A DNA stretch of 64,000 bases from an uncultured Gammaproteobacteria bacterium (GTDB lineage Bacteria; Patescibacteriota; Patescibacteriia; CAZSQN01). The stretch covers positions 11,901 to 75,900 of the forward strand of contig CAZSQN010000001.1 of the NCBI GenBank assembly GCA_964609095.1. The letters run 5' to 3'. Position 1 is the stretch's first letter. Every line of letters begins with the position of its first letter. The notes under the pieces are model-generated. The model was given only the letters and a program-made list of their open reading frames with translations. It ran no database searches and was not told the DNA's origin. Positions 18,541-59,131 of this stretch are shown one piece after another. Made by a program: the position numbers and the translations under genes.

Positions 18541-18700
18541 GTATGTCCGTTTTGGCATAAATTTATGAGGCGTTAATTGTTTAGATATTAATTATACACA
18601 TATTTTCAACAGTTTATCAACATTTTGATAAATTTTACTATATCTTCTATCTCATATATGATTGTGTTATAGTGTTTTTAGAATTCTTGAACCATCTTTT
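18541..18700. promoter_or_regulatory. rpmH-dnaA divergent intergenic region; candidate oriC / dnaA promoter
   Basis: AT-rich; near-consensus DnaA box TTATCAACA at about 18613 and TGTGTTATA nearby. Confidence 0.35.
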
Positions 18701-20083
18701 ATGGAGCCATCAACTCTCTGGCAGGCGACCTTGGGCGAGCTGGAACTCCAGCTTTCAAAGGTCCACTTTCTGACCTGGTTTAAAAATACCTACATCTCTT
18801 CCATGAACGATGGACGAATAACTATTAGCGTCCCCAATACATTTACTAAAACCTGGCTTGAAAAAAGATACCATACCGCCATCCTGAAAGCGCTTCAACA
18901 TGTCCTGAATATCCCCGTGCGCGATATATCCTACGAGGTTAGAGCGGTCGCCGATACAAAAATCAGCTCCGCCCCGCCATCCGGCTTTGGGACATCCTCC
19001 GCCCCAATGGAGCGCGGACGAATCAAAGATCTACCGACCGTTGCCGAAACAGTTAACAAATACGGTCTCAGGGTAAATTATACTTTTGAGAATTATATAG
19101 TCGGGAAAGGCAATGAGCTTGCCCATGCGGCGGCGCAAGCGGTCGCCGATAATCCCGGCCAGAAATATAACCCTCTTTTTATTTATGGCGGCGTTGGTTT
19201 AGGGAAGACCCATCTTATCCAGGCGATTGGCAACAGATTGCTTCAAAAAAATCCCCACGCCAAAGTCCTTTATATTACTTCGGAACAATTTACCAATGAT
19301 TTTGTCAATGCCATGAGAAGCGGCAGTGGAAAAGAATTCAAGGAACGTTATCGCAATGTTGATATTCTTTTAATTGACGACGTCCAGTTTATATCTGGAA
19401 AAGAAGGCACCAAAGAAGAGCTTTTTCATACTTTTAACACCCTCCACCATGCCGGACGCCAGGTCGTCTTTACTTCCGACCGCCCGCCAAAGGAAATAGG
19501 GGCGGAAGAACGGTTAAAATCAAGATTTGAGTGGGGTGCCACCGTTGATATCTCCATTCCCGATCTGGAAACAAGAATCGCCATTTTAAGCCATAAGTGC
19601 GGGGAAAAACAAATAAATATTTCGACCGAGATACTTCATTTTATCGCCTCTGCCCTTCAATCAAACGTAAGAGAGCTTGAAGGTGCTTTGAATAAGATTA
19701 TTGCCAATTATCAGCTAAGAAATACCCCCATCTCGCTTGAGACGACCAAGGCGCTGCTTTCCGGGTTTGCCAATAATTCGGGCAAAAAATCCCTCACTCC
19801 CAAATTCCTGATTGAGGCGGTGACAAATTATTATGATTTATCCATTGACGATATAATCGGCAAAAGCCGCGAACAAAAGCTCGCCTTTCCCCGCCAGATT
19901 ATAATGTTCCTTTTGCGCGAAGAGCTTGAGGTTTCCTATCCCTCAATCGGCAAAGAAATCGGCGGCCGCGACCATACTACAGCCATGCACGCTTATAACA
20001 AAATAAAATTTGAAATAGAAAATGATGAGCGGGTTAAAAGAGATGTGGAAATTATTAAACAGCGCCTTTATAACAGTGCATAA
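18701..20083 (+). CDS. dnaA: chromosomal replication initiator DnaA
   Basis: Walker A GGVGLGKTHL, sensor motifs, C-terminal DNA-binding helix; start at MEPSTLWQ. Confidence 0.95.
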   Translation: MEPSTLWQATLGELELQLSKVHFLTWFKNTYISSMNDGRITISVPNTFTKTWLEKRYHTAILKALQHVLNIPVRDISYEVRAVADTKISSAPPSGFGTSSAPMERGRIKDLPTVAETVNKYGLRVNYTFENYIVGKGNELAHAAAQAVADNPGQKYNPLFIYGGVGLGKTHLIQAIGNRLLQKNPHAKVLYITSEQFTNDFVNAMRSGSGKEFKERYRNVDILLIDDVQFISGKEGTKEELFHTFNTLHHAGRQVVFTSDRPPKEIGAEERLKSRFEWGATVDISIPDLETRIAILSHKCGEKQINISTEILHFIASALQSNVRELEGALNKIIANYQLRNTPISLETTKALLSGFANNSGKKSLTPKFLIEAVTNYYDLSIDDIIGKSREQKLAFPRQIIMFLLREELEVSYPSIGKEIGGRDHTTAMHAYNKIKFEIENDERVKRDVEIIKQRLYNSA

Positions 20084-20323
20084 AATTGTTAATAATCAGT
20101 GGAGGAGTCATGACTTATAAACTGTCCGGCGGAAAAAGAGGATTATTTTAATTTTAATCCCTTTTCTTCTCACTGTTCCCTCCACAATTTATTCTTCGCG
20201 ATAAAATCTAAATTCTATTAGATAATCGCTCCACCAAGCCATCTTTTGGAGCGATTATAATTTTTTGCACTTACTAACACCTCCTACTACTATTACTATT
20301 AATAAATATAAAGAGATAATATT
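20084..20323. promoter_or_regulatory. dnaA-dnaN intergenic AT-rich region; alternative oriC candidate
   Basis: AT-rich stretch ctactactattactattaataaatataaagagataatatt and degenerate DnaA-box-like cctccacaa. Confidence 0.3.
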
Positions 20324-21466
20324 ATGAAATTTTCCTGCACACGAGAGAACTTGGCGCAAGCGCTTTCCATCGTCAGCCACATAACTTCAAAAAATATCCA
20401 ACTGCCCATCCTTAATAACGTTTTGATGAAAACCGACGGAAAGATATTGAAATTTTTCTCAACTAATTTGGAAATATCCATTTCCTGCTTAGTGCGAGGG
20501 CATGTTGAAGAGGAGGGTTCATTCACTGTTCCTTCAAAACTTTTTTCCGATTATGTCGGATTATTGCCCAATGACAGGATTGATTTAGAGCTTCGTAACG
20601 ATGACACTATTAATGTTGTCTGCCAAAGCCATGAAACCAAAATTAAGGGCGTTTCAGCCGTTGATTTTCCCCTTTTTCCAAAAGTGCAAACAGATTCAAA
20701 ATTCAGAATTAACGCCAAGGATTTAAAAGGAGCGATTGAAGGGGTTATTTTTGCCGTTTCGCCAAATGAAACAAGGCCGGAGATAAGCGGCGTTTTGTTT
20801 GATTTTAGGCCTGATGGCGTTAATGGAAAATTAATTCTTGCCGCCACAGACAGTTATCGCTTGGCGGAAGCCACAATTGGCTTGCATGGAGAAGGAAACG
20901 GCTCAAAAGTAATTATTCCGTCAAGAACAGCCGCGGAATTAATGAGAATATTATCAATAAAACGGGATGATATGTCCGAGGGCGAATCGGTTGAGGTCTC
21001 AATTGGCGAGAGCCAGATTGTCTTTGCTTATGACAGCATTGAACTCATCTCTCGCATTATTGAAGGAAGATACCCGGAATATTCGCAAGTCATCCCTGAT
21101 TCTTTTGGAACAGAAATGACCGTAGAAAAAGAAGTATTGGCCGGAGCCGTCCGCGCGGCGTCTCTTTTTTCAAAGTCGGGCCTGCACGATGTGACTATTG
21201 CCGTAGAAGACGGCGGGGAGGTGCTTATTTCTTCGGCTGATAATCAGATCGGCGAAAATAAGAGCAAAATAAAAGCTGAACTAAAAGGCAGGGAAAATAC
21301 GACCACCTTGAATTATAGATATCTTTTGGACGGGGTGGGCAGGATAACGTCAAATAAGATCTTTTTTAGAATGGTGGACGGCGTGAGCCCGTGCGTGATA
21401 ACCCCCGGCGTTGGCGCTAACGAGATTCAAAAGTATGTTTATATTGTCATGCCGATCAAACAATAA
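20324..21466 (+). CDS. dnaN: DNA polymerase III beta sliding clamp
   Basis: 380-aa three-domain clamp; MKFSCTRENLAQALSIVSHI N-terminus. Confidence 0.95.
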   Translation: MKFSCTRENLAQALSIVSHITSKNIQLPILNNVLMKTDGKILKFFSTNLEISISCLVRGHVEEEGSFTVPSKLFSDYVGLLPNDRIDLELRNDDTINVVCQSHETKIKGVSAVDFPLFPKVQTDSKFRINAKDLKGAIEGVIFAVSPNETRPEISGVLFDFRPDGVNGKLILAATDSYRLAEATIGLHGEGNGSKVIIPSRTAAELMRILSIKRDDMSEGESVEVSIGESQIVFAYDSIELISRIIEGRYPEYSQVIPDSFGTEMTVEKEVLAGAVRAASLFSKSGLHDVTIAVEDGGEVLISSADNQIGENKSKIKAELKGRENTTTLNYRYLLDGVGRITSNKIFFRMVDGVSPCVITPGVGANEIQKYVYIVMPIKQ

Positions 21467-24719: not shown

Positions 24720-24792
24720 GCCCCCGTAGTTCAATGGATAGAACGCCAGACTTCTAAGCTGGTTATGGGAGTTCGATTCTCTCCGGGGGCAC
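24720..24792 (+). tRNA. tRNA-Arg (anticodon TCT)
   Basis: hand-folded cloverleaf: acceptor GCCCCCG/CGGGGGC, D-arm GTTC..GAAC, anticodon loop CTTCTAA, T-loop TTCGATT. Confidence 0.8.
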
Positions 24793-24807
24793 CGCGTATT
24801 TTTTACG

Positions 24808-24881
24808 GTGGCCATAGCTCAATGGTAGAGCACTGCTCTGTGGCAGCAGTGACACGGGTTCGATCCCCGTTGGCCACCCCA
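24808..24881 (+). tRNA. tRNA-His (anticodon GTG) with encoded G-1 and CCA
   Basis: acceptor GTGGCCA/TGGCCAC; extra G at 24807 pairs with C73; anticodon loop CTGTGGC; 3-prime CCA encoded. Confidence 0.85.
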
Positions 24882-43455: not shown

Positions 43456-43689
43456 TGTGGGCCTCCTTTGGAAGGAACTTCGTATTGCTTCGGCCTCATT
43501 GCCAAAGCGATACCAGATTATCATTTTGGGGCTCAAAAGTCAAGGGCCGTGTCTTTCAATTATAATAATTCCTTATTCTACCATTCCCAGAAGTAAGTAA
43601 ATTATCACCAGTGCGGAAGCGGGAGGATTCCCAGCCAAAGGCTGGTGGCGCCTCGGGCGCAGAACATACGCGTGGCGGTGGGGGTGAGA

Positions 43690-43785
43690 TTCGAACTCAC
43701 GATACCTTTTGGGTATATCGGTTTTTCCGCGACATCTCCGCTTCGCGGAGTGCGCGGACCCGCTCACCTCGCTTTGCGAGGATGA
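43690..43785 (-). tRNA. tRNA-like sequence: intact type-II variable arm, T-arm and acceptor 3-prime strand (CCCCACC-G-CCA, Tyr-like) but aberrant 5-prime half; possible pseudogene or non-canonical tRNA
   Basis: minus-strand RNA GGTGAGCGGG-[33-nt hairpin TCCGCG..CTCCGCGAAGCGGAG..CGCGGA]-AAAACCGATATACCCAAAAGGTATCGTGAGTTCGAATCTCACCCCCACCGCCA; no GGTGGGG 5-prime acceptor strand and no standard anticodon arm found by hand. Confidence 0.35.
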
Positions 43786-43828
43786 AGCGGGCGAGACCTA
43801 CCTAACTTCCTTGGCGGAGAGGGTGAGA

Positions 43829-43918
43829 TTTGAACTCACGATACCCTTGCGGGTATACCGGTTTTCGAGACCGGCTCTTTCAGCCGCTCAGACACCTCTC
43901 CGCCAAGTTTGTTAGGTT
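43829..43918 (-). tRNA. tRNA-Ser (anticodon CGA), type II with long variable arm, CCA encoded
   Basis: revcomp GGAGAGGTGTCTGAGCGGCTGAAAGAGCCGGTCTCGAAAACCGGTATACCCGCAAGGGTATCGTGAGTTCAAATCTCACCCTCTCCGCCA folds as a canonical cloverleaf. Confidence 0.85.
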
Positions 43919-43934
43919 AAATCCAATTTTTTCT

Positions 43935-44156
43935 TCAGTTGTCGTCTTCCTTGGCTGGATTTGTAAAATAATTCCGTTTTTCTCGCCAATGTTTTGTTTC
44001 TGTGCGCCTCGTAATAAATAAGTACCAAGGCTTATGTGCTTTTGTTGATGTTACCTCGCCGGCATTATGGGCGGTAAATCTAGCCTTTAAATCATCCGTT
44101 ATACCTATATATAAATTCTTTTTGACAATGCTCTGTAATATATAAGTGTAATGCAT
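43935..44156 (-). CDS. GIY-YIG nuclease-domain protein (YhbQ/UPF0213-like)
   Basis: YTYILQSIVKKNLYIGITDDLKARFTAHNAG matches GIY-YIG core; 73 aa from MHYTYIL. Confidence 0.75.
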   Translation of the reverse strand: MHYTYILQSIVKKNLYIGITDDLKARFTAHNAGEVTSTKAHKPWYLFITRRTETKHWREKRNYFTNPAKEDDN

Positions 44157-55146: not shown

Positions 55147-55392
55147 TTAAAATTTGTTATAAGTTGTATCTGATCTCCGTTCAATCGCAATAATCATGAT
55201 TTCATCGTTAAAGATCCGATAAATAATCCGCATGTCCCCCTTTTTTAATCTGTAGACGTCTTTTATTCCTTTAAGTTTTTGTATATCTAAACCCGCTGTT
55301 TCTCTGCTCATGATTTTCTCAATCAGATATTCAATCTGTTTCCGTTGCCGCTCCGGAATCTTTCGCAGGAACTTCTGGATGTGATCCGGCAT
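55147..55392 (-). CDS. RelE/ParE-family type II toxin
   Basis: LKGIKDVYRLKKGDMRIIYRIFNDEIMIIAIERRSD matches RelE/ParE core; start at MPDHIQKF. Confidence 0.7.
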   Translation of the reverse strand: MPDHIQKFLRKIPERQRKQIEYLIEKIMSRETAGLDIQKLKGIKDVYRLKKGDMRIIYRIFNDEIMIIAIERRSDTTYNKF

Positions 55393-55396
55393 AAAT

Positions 55397-55624
55397 TTAG
55401 AGCTTTTTAAGGCGCGCGAGAAGCTCTTTGGCGGAAATGCCGTTTTTTCTAAATTTTGTAAAGTCAATAACTTCCTCCCACCCTTCATCAGCATTAGTTA
55501 GGGGAGTTATTTTGAATAACGGCTTGGATTGTTTGACCACGATAAAAGATTTGCCTCGCTGAACTTCTTTAGCATAGGAGGCAACGTTGTTTCTTAATTG
55601 TTTTAATCCTATGATTTTATTCAT
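55397..55624 (-). CDS. Phd/YefM-type antitoxin
   Basis: 75 aa, immediately upstream of toxin with 4-nt gap; N-terminal GLKQLRNNVASYAKEVQRGKSFIVV. Confidence 0.65.
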   Translation of the reverse strand: MNKIIGLKQLRNNVASYAKEVQRGKSFIVVKQSKPLFKITPLTNADEGWEEVIDFTKFRKNGISAKELLARLKKL

Positions 55625-55642
55625 ATTTTTTTAGTTATTGGG

Positions 55643-55733
55643 TTCACCCCGTTAGAAGCCCTATTCTATGAAGGTTTGACTATCTTGTTTGGTGATAATT
55701 TTTTTAGGAAGGAGCTTCTAACGGGGTTCATCT
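55643..55733. promoter_or_regulatory. inverted repeat CACCCCGTTAGAAGC ... GCTTCTAACGGGGTT flanking a 54-bp spacer, upstream of the TA operon
   Basis: 15-nt arms read directly; the 14-mer CTTCTAACGGGGTT recurs at 60657-60670. Confidence 0.45.
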
Positions 55734-55890
55734 TTAGTTTAACAAAGGATTATCTGGAAGTCAAACTAATCATCCCGCCGTTTGCTTTTGAATTACGCAA
55801 AGTTGGCGGGATGCCCGGATAGCGATCGGGACAAAATAAAAACCCTTAACTTTGTTAAGTTAAGGGCGACGAACCATTTAGGTTTATTTT

Positions 55891-56250
55891 TTATGAATTT
55901 GCGGTTTCCTCGTCCATCGGACGCAAGTTATCGCGATTGCTCCAGGGCAGTTCGCCGTCAAGCCATTCGCGCTTGCCAGTGCGCGGATTTACTCGGCAAA
56001 CATCGGCGAAACACCTTTCGCATGCGCCAACAAGTGTGCCAAGTTCAAATGAACTAATTATGTCCTTGTTACAGCACGATGACAGATATTTGGGGCTAAA
56101 GGCACAAGTACAGGCCCCGACATTGATTGTCCGACCCTCCAGTACACCATGACATTTTTCGCAAAATACCCGTTTGCACCGATTGCAGCGGTGATTATCA
56201 ACTTCTCCAAGTCGGCATTCCGGGCACGATCCTTCGCATCCGCAGGCCAT
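55891..56250 (-). CDS. cysteine-rich hypothetical protein (119 aa, 17 Cys)
   Basis: MACGCEGSCPECRLG ... CNRCKRVFCEKCHG ... multiple CxxC pairs. Confidence 0.45.
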   Translation of the reverse strand: MACGCEGSCPECRLGEVDNHRCNRCKRVFCEKCHGVLEGRTINVGACTCAFSPKYLSSCCNKDIISSFELGTLVGACERCFADVCRVNPRTGKREWLDGELPWSNRDNLRPMDEETANS

Positions 56251-56253
56251 CTT

Positions 56254-56643
56254 TTAGCTTTCCTTTCTTGAAATTCTATAACGATATGGCAATTCATGAC
56301 GAGGATCATCTCTCTCAGGATCCTCTTTAACCGCAAAATCGCGTTTTTTTAATTTGCGAATAGCAATATGGGCAAAAGAATGACTCCAATTGTTAACTCT
56401 CGCCTGTAAATCTTGAAATTCTTGCCGCAGATCAATCAAAACACCGGCTTCTGCTTCCGTTACAAGTTGGGCCAAGGCATCAGATTGAATTAAACCAAAC
56501 TCCGCCTCCCACTTATCCGCTAAGTATTCAGCTAAAGCGTCAGCAAGCCTACCTTCCCGTTCCATCGTCCGAGATCGAAAATCTTCGGAAATTCTTGCCT
56601 TTGCTTCATGAATCAGTTCATGAAGAGATTTTTTGTTGCTCAT
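56254..56643 (-). CDS. hypothetical acidic protein
   Basis: start at MSNKKSLHEL; no motif recognised. Confidence 0.45.
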   Translation of the reverse strand: MSNKKSLHELIHEAKARISEDFRSRTMEREGRLADALAEYLADKWEAEFGLIQSDALAQLVTEAEAGVLIDLRQEFQDLQARVNNWSHSFAHIAIRKLKKRDFAVKEDPERDDPRHELPYRYRISRKES

Positions 56644-57026
56644 TTTGTCTCCTTTGAGTTGATTGTAAAGGTGCAAATTACAGCTTAATCTAAGCTATAA
56701 CAAAGTTAGCAAAAGGTTAAGCAAAAGTCAATGGTTTAAATATTTTTTTAACCGCACTACGATACTATGTAGTATCGTAGTGGGATGGTAAAATGGATGA
56801 ATCATTTTTTATCCAAATACTTTATACTTTTATCAAATGTGTTTTTCTTCAATAATGTGCTATCGCGCGCAATTGAGGCAAGCAAAGCGCGTTAAAAAAA
56901 GCGAATTAAACAAAAACAAAATGGTCCGATCGGACCATAATGTTATTTTATAAATTTTAGTCGGCCCAGTAGGATTCTCCGCCAAAGGCGGATGCGCCGT
57001 AGGCGCAGAACCCATGACAACAAATA

Positions 57027-57098
57027 TGCGCGTGCTAGGATTCGAACCTAGAACCAGTCGTGTATAAGACGACGGCTCTACCATTGAGCTACACGCGC
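57027..57098 (-). tRNA. tRNA-Ile (anticodon TAT / UAU)
   Basis: revcomp GCGCGTGTAGCTCAATGGTAGAGCCGTCGTCTTATACACGACTGGTTCTAGGTTCGAATCCTAGCACGCGCA; anticodon stem GTCGT/ACGAC, loop CTTATAC; flanked by 15-nt inverted repeat atgacaacaaatat / atatttgttgtcat. Confidence 0.75.
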
Positions 57099-57221
57099 GC
57101 ATATTTGTTGTCATCAACGATTGTTATTCTATCCCAAAAGCGCAGTTGTTTCAAGAGGCGCGATGGTCTATTCTTAATAAGAGAACTTAAATTCAGAACA
57201 ATTAAGAAAGGGGGTGGATTT

Positions 57222-57601: not shown

Positions 57602-59131
57602 ATGCCCCGCGTTACAACTTTGAAGAAAAAACAAAACGAGATTATCGGAGAAATGAGCCATAAGGATTTTTCTTTTATCGGCAGAATGAAAAAAAAGTTT
57701 CCGCAGTGTGAAATTTATCTTGTCGGCGGCGCCGTCAGGGATTTGATTTTAAGCCGGCCGACCAAGGATTTTGATTTTGTGGTGCGTGGAGTAGGCGCCA
57801 AGAATCTGGAAAAGTTTCTTGATGGCGAAGGCGATACCGACCTTGTCGGCCGCCATTTTGGCGTGTTTAAATTCCTGCCCAAAGGCAGGAGCGTCGAGCC
57901 GTTTGACATAGCCCTGCCGCGCACGGAACATTCCCTAGACGAAGGAGGTTATCGCGATTTTGACGTGCAGTCGGACCCGTCGCTTAAAATAGAAGATGAT
58001 CTTAGCCGCCGCGATTTTACCGTTAATGCTATTGCTTATCGTCTGATTGCGTTGGGCAGGAATATTGCCATTCGGGAGGTCGTTGACCCTTGGAACGGAA
58101 AAGATGACATAAAGAAAAAAATAATCCGCACGGTCGGCGATTCTGATGAAAGATTCAGGGAAGATTATTCCCGCCTGCTTCGCGGACTCCGTTTCGCAAT
58201 TCAGCTTGGTTTTGAAATAGAACCAGGCGCCTTCGCGGCTATCGGCGCTTTAATTCCAAAAATCAATGATGTTAAAAATAACATCAGGATTGTGCCGACC
58301 GAGATTATTGCCCGCGAATTTTTAAAATCGTTTGCCGCCGACCCCGTCCGCGCTTTAGACCTTTGGGACAAAGCCGGAGCGATTGGCGCTCTGATGCCGG
58401 AGCTGCTGGAAATGAAGGGTTGCGTTCAGCCGTCCAATTTCCACAGTGAAGGAGATGTGTGGACGCATACGCGGCTGGCATTGTCTTTGCTAAAGTCAAA
58501 AGAATATAAAAGACAATTTGGAAGCGAGTCGCCTTCCGCTGAAACGATTTTGGGCGTTTTGTTTCACGATATCGGCAAGCCGCGCACCAAACAAACTCCG
58601 CAAGAACATGGCACAGACAGGATAAGGTTTAACAACCATGATGTTGTCGGCAGTGTTATGGCCGACGGTATTTGCGAACGGCTGACGCTCTCCGCGCCGG
58701 CGGAATTTTCTATTGACGCGGAAAGAATTGCCAACTTGGCGCGGCATCATCTTATCACCGTGCATGGACAAGTGAAAAACATTAGAAACAATACGATTGA
58801 AAAATATTTTTTCAGCCCGTCTTTTCCCGGCGAGGCCTTGCAGAGAGTTATTTTTTGCGATTCCAGTGCCACGATTCCGGAGGTGGGCAAGCCCGACCTG
58901 AAACATTATTTTGACTTGCGCAAAAGAATAGCCAAGCTTAAAAAATTATCCGCCGAACGCCCGATTTTGCCGCCGCCGGTTGTTAACGGCGATGAGATTA
59001 TGAAATGGCTAAAATTAAAACCGGGACCCGAAGTCGGGCGGCTGATTCGGGATTTGCGCGAGGAACAGCTTTCCGGAAAAATTAAAACAAAAGCGCAGGC
59101 GCGGAGTTTTTTAAAAAAACATAAAATATGA
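57602..59131 (+). CDS. cca: CCA-adding tRNA nucleotidyltransferase with HD domain
   Basis: YLVGGAVRDLIL ... DFDF polymerase-beta head, HD motif FHDIGKP. Confidence 0.85.
   Translation: MPRVTTLKKKQNEIIGEMSHKDFSFIGRMKKKFPQCEIYLVGGAVRDLILSRPTKDFDFVVRGVGAKNLEKFLDGEGDTDLVGRHFGVFKFLPKGRSVEPFDIALPRTEHSLDEGGYRDFDVQSDPSLKIEDDLSRRDFTVNAIAYRLIALGRNIAIREVVDPWNGKDDIKKKIIRTVGDSDERFREDYSRLLRGLRFAIQLGFEIEPGAFAAIGALIPKINDVKNNIRIVPTEIIAREFLKSFAADPVRALDLWDKAGAIGALMPELLEMKGCVQPSNFHSEGDVWTHTRLALSLLKSKEYKRQFGSESPSAETILGVLFHDIGKPRTKQTPQEHGTDRIRFNNHDVVGSVMADGICERLTLSAPAEFSIDAERIANLARHHLITVHGQVKNIRNNTIEKYFFSPSFPGEALQRVIFCDSSATIPEVGKPDLKHYFDLRKRIAKLKKLSAERPILPPPVVNGDEIMKWLKLKPGPEVGRLIRDLREEQLSGKIKTKAQARSFLKKHKI

Follow-up and report, generated by a model that had tools for sequence, protein, structure and literature searches.

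The 64,000-nucleotide stretch of contig CAZSQN010000001.1 analysed here (the window) belongs to the candidate phyla radiation (CPR; Patescibacteria), and its proteins carry the NCBI name Candidatus Uhrbacteria bacterium. Its minus strand encodes a 72-nucleotide (nt) tRNA-Ile gene with the anticodon UAU, tRNA-Ile(UAU), which is flanked by the two arms of an inverted repeat and followed by sequence homologous to the 3' end of another tRNA. The arrangement suggests a tRNA gene, here called inner, that sits within what is left of an older, outer one. The locus is composed of the following elements, given from 5' to 3' on the minus strand and followed by the divergent neighboring gene. Loci and contigs used for comparison are designated by L numbers.

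57126-57154, minus strand: sigma-70-like promoter, TTGAAA-17 nt-TAGAAT, 10 of 12 positions matching (motif; CTTGAA(A/G)C -35 region common to L210, L211 and L213)
57101-57114, minus strand: 5' arm of the leader-trailer helix, ATGACAACAAATAT (= AUGACAACAAAUAU) (repeat search; covariation with orthologs)
57099-57100, minus strand: G-2 and C-1, unpaired, forming a 2-nt bulge where the helix meets the acceptor stem (sequence; same two nucleotides in L209 and L210)
57027-57098, minus strand: tRNA-Ile(UAU), 72 nt, the inner, presumably functional gene (ARAGORN, Rfam RF00005, syntenic orthologs)
57014-57027, minus strand: 3' arm of the helix, ATATTTGTTGTCAT (= AUAUUUGUUGUCAU), the first base of which is the discriminator A73 (repeat search; covariation with orthologs)
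56961-57013, minus strand: putative 3' remnant of the older outer tRNA(UAU), GGGUUC-(hairpin 1)-(hairpin 2)-GAAUCC-UAC-UGGGCCG-A (alignment with homologs)
56993-57007, minus strand: hairpin 1 of the T-loop insert, UGCGCC-UAC-GGCGCA (100% paired in five homologs, two pairs changed on both sides)
56978-56992, minus strand: hairpin 2 of the T-loop insert, UCCGCC-UUU-GGCGGA (100% paired in five homologs, two pairs changed on both sides)
56908-56938, minus strand: intrinsic terminator, AUGGUCCGAUCGGACCAU followed by a U-run, closing a unit of ~210 nt (motif)
57602-59131, plus strand: gene of the CCA-adding enzyme, divergent neighbor (Pfam PolyA_pol and HD; NCBI 'CCA tRNA nucleotidyltransferase [Candidatus Uhrbacteria bacterium]')

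ARAGORN identifies tRNA-Ile with the anticodon tat at 57027-57098 on the minus strand as one of four tRNA genes in the window (Arg-UCU, His, Ser-CGA and Ile-UAU). The same 72 nt match Rfam RF00005 over model positions 1-71 with 72.8 bits, the gathering score being 29. The minus-strand reading is GCGCGUG-UA-GCUC-AAUGGUA-GAGC-C-GUCGU-CUUAUAC-ACGAC-UGGUU-CUAGG-UUCGAAU-CCUAG-CACGCGC-A. The 7-nt anticodon loop, CUUAUAC, contains U33, the anticodon UAU and A37. The CCA end is not encoded, as A73 is followed by UAUUUG. The initial annotation of this DNA had described a canonical cloverleaf with a genomically encoded UAU anticodon in a loop reading CTTATAC. Both programs agree with that description, and the loop was read correctly; it lies on the minus strand, a detail absent from the annotation.

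The identity set of E. coli isoleucyl-tRNA synthetase (IleRS) used for comparison, which reportedly goes back to Nureki 1994, is composed of A73, A37, A38, C4-G69, U12-A23 and C29-G41. Five of these six determinants are present in the window tRNA (A73, A37, C4-G69, U12-A23 and C29-G41), and A38 is replaced by C38. Among 145 distinct relatives, A73 and U12-A23 are invariant (145 each), C4-G69 is present in 121 and C29-G41 in 77, and C38 occurs in 99 of the 145 variants.

Over 261 nt, the locus is identical in an independent assembly from another sequencing run (L002). This identity, together with the recurrence of the nested loci described below in independent contigs (L042=L178; L190=L201; L160=L195=L196=L202), excludes an assembly artefact. 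Two short-read Logan contigs of the same organism, L003 and L004, stop within the tRNA and its inverted repeat at window positions 57017 and 57101, and the inverted repeat appears to break assemblies.

The inverted repeat is perfect over 14 nt when the cloverleaf is kept intact. The repeat search returned a 19-nt perfect repeat (57014-57032 and 57096-57114) in a register that is shifted by 2 nt and consumes three to five acceptor-stem bases, which is possible because of the GCGCGCG run. The repeat reported initially is thus real, with a length of 14 nt, not 15, in the presence of an intact cloverleaf. In mismatched leader and trailer controls (n=2,984), the longest perfect complement reached 12 nt, once, and 99.7% were no longer than 8 nt. 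The 14-nt complementarity is not a product of chance. Relative to shuffled sequences, the folding of the 226-nt region has a z-score of -7.2.

The locus was compared with those of four relatives, L209, L210, L211 and L213, the CCA-adding enzymes of which are 66-72% identical to that of the window. tRNA-Ile(UAU) is found in the same place and orientation in all four. The 72-nt gene is nearly invariant, with differences limited to one D-loop base and the acceptor pair 2-71 (G2-C71 in L211 and L213), and the flanks have diverged. The ortholog acceptor stem GGGCGTG/CACGCCC is the same as that of the CPR tRNA-Ile(GAU) in L145. The leader-trailer helix is 13-15 base pairs (bp) long in all five orthologs, the window included. 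The helices of the window, L210 and L209 share a common register with two unpaired nucleotides, and between the window and L210 four pairs have changed on both sides and none is broken. In a covariation test of three sequences, 93.7% of the helix cells were paired, in comparison to 13-60% when the partners were slid. The helix of L211 and L213 is a different one, which runs on into the acceptor stem without unpaired nucleotides. Its three G·U pairs can form only in RNA of the tRNA (sense) strand and thus point to such an RNA. Because of the double-sided pair changes and the G·U pairs, the helix behaves as a selected RNA feature. The extended precursor stem proposed in the initial annotation is accordingly borne out, since the helix is retained in the five orthologs via compensatory changes. 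Extended stems were also considered as a general precursor feature of CPR tRNA(UAU) and rejected, as the duplex energies are the same as those of controls and only 5 of 114 loci have nine or more perfect nucleotides.

The 53 nt that follow the 3' arm read GGGTTC-TGCGCCTACGGCGCA-TCCGCCTTTGGCGGA-GAATCC-TAC-TGGGCCG-A. They correspond to a T-arm, the T-loop of which contains an insert of two hairpins, and to the 3' acceptor strand and discriminator that come after it. The intact outer half of L211 ends in the same 17 nt, GAATCCTACTGGGCCGA, as this remnant. In L211, the inner cassette lies in the anticodon loop of the outer tRNA and the outer 3' half reads TATAC-ACGAT-TGGTT-GTAGG-TTCGAAT-CCTAC-TGGGCCG-A. 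In L209, an outer 5' half, GGATGCG...CTTA, is followed in turn by a 72-nt insert, by TACACGACTGGTTCTA, by the inner tRNA between its two arms, and by GGTTC-hairpin-hairpin-GAATC...ACCA. The insertion point is located in the T-stem in L209 and L210, and in the anticodon loop in L211. Since the insertion points differ between sister lineages, the resident gene must have been invaded at least twice. We infer that the window locus is a decayed tRNA-within-tRNA nest.

Both hairpins have been conserved through compensatory changes in four further copies, those of L209, L210 and L139 and a second one in the window. In L139, the two-hairpin module is part of an outer tRNA ending CCTAG-CGCGCGC-A-CCA. 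The module, GGTTC-(6-bp hairpin)-(6-bp hairpin)-GAATCC, occupies T-loop position 56/57 of dead tRNAs of two isotypes in distant CPR lineages. Its copies are located at 56961-57013 and 43612-43665 of the window, 1233-1296 of L139, 3146-3206 of L209 and 100-163 of L210.

The second copy in the window belongs to another nested locus, which is composed of the following elements.

43612-44156, minus strand: second nested locus, around tRNA-Ser(CGA) (ARAGORN, Pfam and self-similarity scans)
43935-44156, minus strand: GIY-YIG open reading frame (ORF), 73 amino acids, 33 nt upstream of tRNA-Ser(CGA) (Pfam)
43812-43901, minus strand: tRNA-Ser(CGA) with leader/trailer pairing, followed by two GC-rich hairpins
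43673-43723, minus strand: displaced 3' half of another tRNA-Ser, ending CCA
43612-43665, minus strand: second copy of the two-hairpin T-loop module

Nesting of this kind recurs across the CPR, the inner tRNA and its arms often being enclosed by an interrupted tRNA(UAU)-like gene. A profile search of the flanks of tRNA(UAU) genes found partial 5' and/or 3' tRNA halves in 43 loci among the matches listed. By eye, about 25 of about 150 distinct loci, roughly one in six, are nested once adjacent full tRNAs and duplicate contigs are set aside. Their break points are concentrated in three loops, namely the anticodon loop, T-loop and D-loop. A stricter self-similarity test was positive for 23 of 173 tRNA(UAU) genes versus 10 of 213 neighboring other tRNAs, an enrichment estimate that is biased by the ascertainment of the loci via tRNA(UAU). 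The intron mode of ARAGORN misses nested genes, and the inserts were therefore deleted in silico, after which the program recognized an outer tRNA(UAU) in L042/L178, L062, L135, L138, L190, L051 and L090. In L138, L062, L178 and L113 (one mismatch), the two acceptor halves of the outer tRNA match. They are chimeric in L190 and in L090, which is nested several layers deep. At the gathering score, Rfam recognized no family besides tRNA in the window or in 19 nested loci. Group I introns (RF00028) were rejected as the identity of the inserts, which have no such Rfam match in the window or the nested loci and are too short. Nested or interrupted tRNA genes of this layout are not described in the open literature searched.

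Several groups of inserts and outer genes can be distinguished. One family, inserted at position 35/36 of the anticodon loop of tRNA(UAU), has the conserved ends CTTA/CCCGCCTG...CGGGCAGG/TAC, with slashes marking the junctions, and is found in L209 (72 nt), L139, L087 and possibly L091. Some inserts at this position contain an inner tRNA and others do not, and all are far too short for ribozymes. A distinct tRNA(UAU)-like family, GGGCCRG-UA-GCUU-RGYGGYUA-AAGC... (L042/L178, L153, L164 and L190), was seen only interrupted, at varied positions. It keeps perfect acceptor and T stems and the CCA, and may be recently invaded or still functional. Long, GC-rich perfect hairpins without cargo lie inside the D-loops of outer tRNAs in L085, L119 and L160/L195, and inside the T-loops in L153, L164 and L101. 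They look like 'empty' arm-tRNA-arm cassettes.

Some of the nests are associated with small genes of the GIY-YIG family. In L113 and L119, GIY-YIG ORFs of 82-96 amino acids lie within the insert, directly upstream of the inner tRNA (Pfam), and some CPR GIY-YIG ORFs also match T5orf172. As an independent check, the loci of four distinct homologs of the GIY-YIG protein from the second nested locus of the window were examined. Each homolog is encoded on the same strand as a tRNA gene and 95-190 nt away from it, and the link of these genes to tRNA genes is therefore general. The neighborhoods of the homologs (L335-L339) differ from that of the window. The GIY-YIG gene always follows the tRNA (Ala-GGC, Pro-CGG or Tyr-GUA) at this distance, and the spacer opens directly after the CCA with a conserved palindrome, GCCTTCGC...GCGAAGGC. 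No endonuclease gene was found at the tRNA-Ile locus of the window, where the neighboring ORFs have no Pfam match. The open literature searched gives no account of this arrangement of GIY-YIG and tRNA genes in Patescibacteria.

The codon read by a UAU anticodon is common in this genome. Codon usage had been named in the initial annotation as a check, and AUA proved to be heavily used, with 249 of 1,092 Ile codons (23%) in the 45 long ORFs of the window. This amounts to 15.8 per 1000 codons, a level in the 'high' class of PMC12514573. Because the UAU gene is canonical, AUA is used heavily and synteny is conserved, a dedicated AUA decoder that is independent of lysidine is the natural reading of the sequence.

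The tRNA(UAU) type was searched for in species-representative genomes with a pattern that fixed the D-arm, CTTATA and the T-loop. It is present in at least 120 of these genomes, overwhelmingly of Patescibacteria. The matches listed include Saccharibacteria, Levyi-, Davies-, Pacei-, Uhr-, Magasanik-, Berkel-, Doudna- and Jorgensenbacteria and others, along with a minority from Planctomycetota, Chloroflexota and Acidobacteriota, and a few labelled as archaea. An exact-core pattern had no match in metagenomes, and its relaxed version, which is narrower than the pattern of the genome scan, yielded 57 contigs. The UAU tRNA type is widespread in the CPR and not peculiar to this genome. A domain scan of ORFs detected neither TilS nor IleRS in the readable ~70 kb of the genome (the window and about 5 kb), and the ~0.9 Mb of retrieved DNA, mostly from the CPR, contained no SGGxDS PP-loop ORF, which is weak evidence. 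Searches of the open literature for CPR, Patescibacteria or Saccharibacteria together with lysidine or tilS retrieved nothing relevant. UAU-type tRNA-Ile has been described for Mycoplasma mobile, Bifidobacterium and Neorickettsia (PMC3575796), and no account of it in the CPR was found in the open literature searched. A paper on introns of Patescibacteria lists tRNAs by amino acid only in its supplement and does not mention tRNA-Ile(UAU) (PMC13011429).

Viral contigs contain at least 120 tRNA(UAU) genes, most of the A38 type, the best among those listed being identical to the window gene at only 56 of 72 positions. Many of these matches (L214-L333) come from a single metagenome sample, IMG id 3300045988. 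A viral scan for the exact AATGGTA D-loop with C or T at position 34 returned 27 CAT tRNAs and no TAT. The hairpin module had a single match in viral contigs, a coincidence within a coding sequence. A phage origin of the tRNA was rejected, as the viral tRNA(UAU) genes listed are unrelated.

The tRNA would be transcribed from the sigma-70-like promoter, starting a few nucleotides upstream of the 5' arm. The promoter overlaps a sequence that by eye, outside any tool alignment, is ~60% identical to the degenerate outer-tRNA remnant of L210. The intrinsic terminator is located 90 nt downstream of the tRNA. The adjoining gene of the CCA-adding enzyme fits a tRNA without an encoded CCA, and the same adjacency to a CCA-less tRNA is found in L209, L210, L211 and L213. 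In this genome, the CCA is encoded in the His and Ser tRNA genes, and not in the Arg and Ile genes. The genes of tRNA-Arg(UCU) and tRNA-His(GUG) are spaced by 14 nt at 24720-24881 on the plus strand. The interval between ruvB and tRNA-Ile(UAU) is a variable island (55147-56676 in the window, 1196-3110 in L209 and 998-3658 in L211). It holds a ParE-like toxin and unknown ORFs in the window, a restriction-modification pair (N6_N4_Mtase and RE_MjaI) in L209, and antitoxin-like and YibE_F genes in L211. The gene content of the window is chromosomal, with dnaA-dnaN, pnp, tig, purA, ruvB and rplS. Because dnaA and dnaN are located here (18662-21466, plus strand), the window probably covers the region of the chromosomal replication origin.

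To account for the tRNA, its covarying helix, the tRNA 3'-end homology downstream, the recurrent nesting and the association with GIY-YIG genes in some loci, we propose that tRNA-Ile(UAU) of the window is a working AUA-decoding tRNA and the inner copy of a nested locus, derived from a replacement cassette that was inserted into a resident gene. We regard this explanation as probable. Minus-strand transcription from the gene's own promoter to the intrinsic terminator would yield a precursor of ~210 nt. Its 14-bp helix pairs bases just outside the acceptor stem, including A73, and would most likely serve as a clamp or processing stalk. As a clamp, it may let the tRNA fold as an independent domain beside homologous tRNA debris. 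RNase P would cut the 5' side at the 2-nt bulge, its cleavage site lying 3' of C-1, RNase Z would cut the 3' side, and the enzyme encoded next door would then add the CCA. U34 would read AUA, as follows from the anticodon.

The small arm-tRNA-arm cassette would have entered the resident tRNA(UAU) gene at one of its loops or stems, breaking the gene and supplying its function simultaneously. The resident gene would since have decayed, leaving downstream its 3' end with the two-hairpin T-loop insert, its 5' part being overwritten by the promoter region. The recurrence of nests suggests that tRNA genes in the CPR are replaced by small invading tRNA cassettes. As a GIY-YIG gene lies within the insert of two loci, homing-like spread is plausible, and we hypothesize that uninterrupted alleles are cut and the cassette is copied in. 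The cleavage activity and homing of the GIY-YIG proteins are assumed here by analogy with phage SegB-type enzymes.

More tentatively, and with more doubt than confidence, we speculate that the nests are the work of undescribed, very small mobile elements of the CPR. Such an element would be composed of a hairpin-flanked complete tRNA, sometimes with a GIY-YIG protein of ~80 amino acids, and would home into a loop of a resident copy of the same tRNA, the damage being offset by the replacement tRNA and not, as in introns and inteins, by splicing. Repeated rounds would stack dead tRNA halves into nests like Russian dolls. The structural signature of the element would be the conserved leader-trailer helix, and the window tRNA would be a domesticated survivor. 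Free-standing GIY-YIG enzymes of phages, such as T4 SegB and those of the T5 tRNA region (T5orf172), resemble the CPR genes in being small and tied to tRNA genes. SegB reportedly promotes the co-conversion of flanking markers, and homing of the SegB type would explain a preferential inheritance of the linked tRNA. In contrast to the CPR loci, the SegB system is not known to place a complete tRNA inside another tRNA gene, and the tRNA-Ile locus of the window lacks such an ORF.

Several observations weigh against the replacement cassette. The window shows only a relic, as the locus has no GIY-YIG gene, target-site duplication or recognizable outer 5' acceptor, and a nuclease lies inside the insert in only 2 of about 25 nested loci. 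The outer genes of L178, L153 and L164 keep perfect acceptor and T stems, which could mean that they are still functional. The covariation test comprised three sequences only, and the formation of inverted repeats at the DNA level would also look 'compensatory'. The arm sequences vary between lineages, which fits a role as RNA and offers no conserved end for recognition by a protein. Long perfect complementarity of leader and trailer (nine or more perfect nucleotides) is rare, with 5 of 114 tRNA(UAU) loci and 2 of 164 other tRNAs. For RNase P and RNase Z, a long leader-trailer helix would be expected to be an obstacle, not an aid. The promoter and terminator are deduced from motifs, and the action of RNase P, RNase Z and possibly RNase III on the precursor is likewise a deduction. 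The bias from ascertaining loci via tRNA(UAU) belongs here as well. Elsewhere in the 64 kb, the helix arms have only near-chance matches with one or two mismatches, and no target-site duplication was found at the window junctions.

The 14-nt perfect arms would qualify as the terminal inverted repeats of a miniature inverted-repeat transposable element (MITE) or palindromic element. A MITE or repeated element was rejected for this window on the grounds of the missing further arm copies and target-site duplication. Short TATA/ATAA junction duplications are found only in other loci (L062, L090, L057 and L101).

Four other explanations were weighed, each of which is less consistent with the ortholog comparison than the replacement cassette. 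The best of them, which we nevertheless find unlikely, is an ordinary, vertically inherited tRNA gene. Its repeat would be a stem for processing or stability of the pre-tRNA, for example an RNase III stalk like those around rRNAs, and the hairpins would be unrelated spacer or terminator-like elements. The synteny of the locus in five genomes and the covariation of the helix, as expected of a functional RNA element, agree with such a gene, as do the uniqueness of the arms within the window and the absence of a nuclease gene or target duplication at the locus. It does not account for the 17 nt past the hairpins, which are identical to the 3' end (T-loop, T-stem, acceptor strand and A73) of the interrupted L211 tRNA(UAU), or for the position of the hairpin pair exactly between GGTTC and GAATCC of a T-arm. 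Moreover, the matching outer 5' half is still present upstream in L209, and in the window the module is found again behind a second nested tRNA (Ser).

It is highly unlikely that the outer tRNA is functional and the insert a new type of tRNA intron, with the embedded tRNA excised by RNase P and RNase Z and the halves held together by the arm helix and ligated or left split, so that each transcript would give two tRNAs. In favor of it, the acceptor and T stems are still perfect and the CCA is still encoded in several outer genes (L178/L042, L153, L164 and L062), and the arms are located next to the junctions. Split and multi-intron tRNAs of archaea (Nanoarchaeum; the non-canonical introns of Thermoproteales) are interrupted in the D-, anticodon and T-loops and have leader/trailer-type helices at the break points. 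The CPR loci share with them the interruption positions and the helix adjoining the break points. They differ in being bacterial, in having no evident bulge-helix-bulge (by inspection, the junction helices abut the break points), in the complete second tRNA within the insert, and in outer genes that often cannot be reconstituted. The outer 5' acceptor is lost in the window, L210, L211 and L213, and the halves are mismatched in L209 and L190. These loci cannot form an outer tRNA, yet the helix is kept. Degeneration is seen in many outer halves, as in the D-arm of L135 and in L138, where the 5' strand of the anticodon stem is missing, and insertions in the anticodon loop would leave a helix in the loop. 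Group I introns interrupt anticodon loops of the same phylum, including at position 35/36 (Nakagawa et al. 2026, PMC13011429). The inserts described here differ from these in their length of 70-250 nt, in the lack of a detectable group I ribozyme or other Rfam match, and in their presence also in D- and T-loops. Their cargo is a complete tRNA, not a ribozyme, and points to replacement instead of splicing.

We give very little credence to debris of integrase attachment (att) sites, left with duplicated 3' ends after elements had repeatedly integrated into the tRNA gene and been lost. tRNA genes are well known as targets of integration, which leaves a second copy of their 3' part. Downstream 3' halves are slightly more common than upstream 5' halves (15 versus 13), and the ruvB-tRNA stretch varies among the relatives, with restriction-modification or toxin-antitoxin genes, both in line with such a history. 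However, the upstream 5' halves match, with break points abutting those of the 3' halves, and whole tRNAs are located within D-, anticodon and T-loops inside 100-250 nt with no element between. No integrase was found among the neighbors scanned, the remnant begins 14 nt after the tRNA, and the arm helix is left unexplained. Integrative elements that target tRNA genes are kilobases long, encode an integrase and bring only the displaced 3' part of the gene. The nests resemble them in the use of a tRNA gene as a target and in the compensation of its disruption by element-borne sequence, and differ in that the insert of about 100-350 nt brings a full tRNA.

It is likewise very improbable that the UAU tRNA is redundant or silent and AUA is read by a lysidine-modified tRNA-Ile2(CAU) with tilS elsewhere in the genome. 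In favor of such a copy, both systems coexist in some bacteria, certain lactobacilli among them. Against it, hardly any base of the 72-nt gene differs between genomes in which the neighboring CCA enzyme is only 66-72% identical. A promoter-like site and a terminator bracket the gene itself, AUA is used frequently, and the tRNA type persists throughout the CPR. The search of mostly CPR DNA for an SGGxDS PP-loop ORF, weak as this evidence is, was negative.

The replacement cassette thus combines a tRNA of a known kind with an arrangement that is new to the open literature searched. The tRNA-Ile2(UAU) of Mycoplasma mobile, also a small-genome organism, has an encoded UAU in place of the CAU/lysidine tRNA, and experiments showed that tilS has been lost, that U34 is unmodified and that the IleRS is adapted (Taniguchi et al. 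2013, PMC3575796). In Bifidobacterium and Neorickettsia, which lack tilS and have a eukaryote-type IleRS, a tRNA-Ile(UAU) similarly replaces the lysidine system (PMC3575796). The tRNA type of the window differs from that of Mycoplasma mobile in being spread over a whole superphylum, in its predominant C38, and in the setting of its gene in a conserved precursor helix and nested gene debris. The tRNA itself is a known kind in a lineage for which the open literature searched has no account of it, and the same literature describes neither the conserved helix nor the gene-in-gene arrangement.

Lysidine-free decoding of AUA has been seen as an oddity of a small number of bacteria, among them Mycoplasma mobile and Bifidobacterium, and a UAU tRNA is now found across the CPR, a large share of bacterial diversity. 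It can now be tested how minimal cells read AUA without reading AUG, whether the near-universal and essential TilS is dispensed with, and how IleRS recognizes U34. If tRNA genes of the CPR are indeed replaced by invading cassettes, bringing a spare copy of the broken gene would be a third route by which selfish insertions are tolerated, beside self-splicing introns and inteins. It would explain the turnover and horizontal spread of tRNA genes in reduced genomes and give a role to widespread small tRNA-linked GIY-YIG proteins. Annotators of CPR genomes would then be warned that the tRNA 'fragments' and strange hairpins around tRNA genes record a structured history and are not noise.

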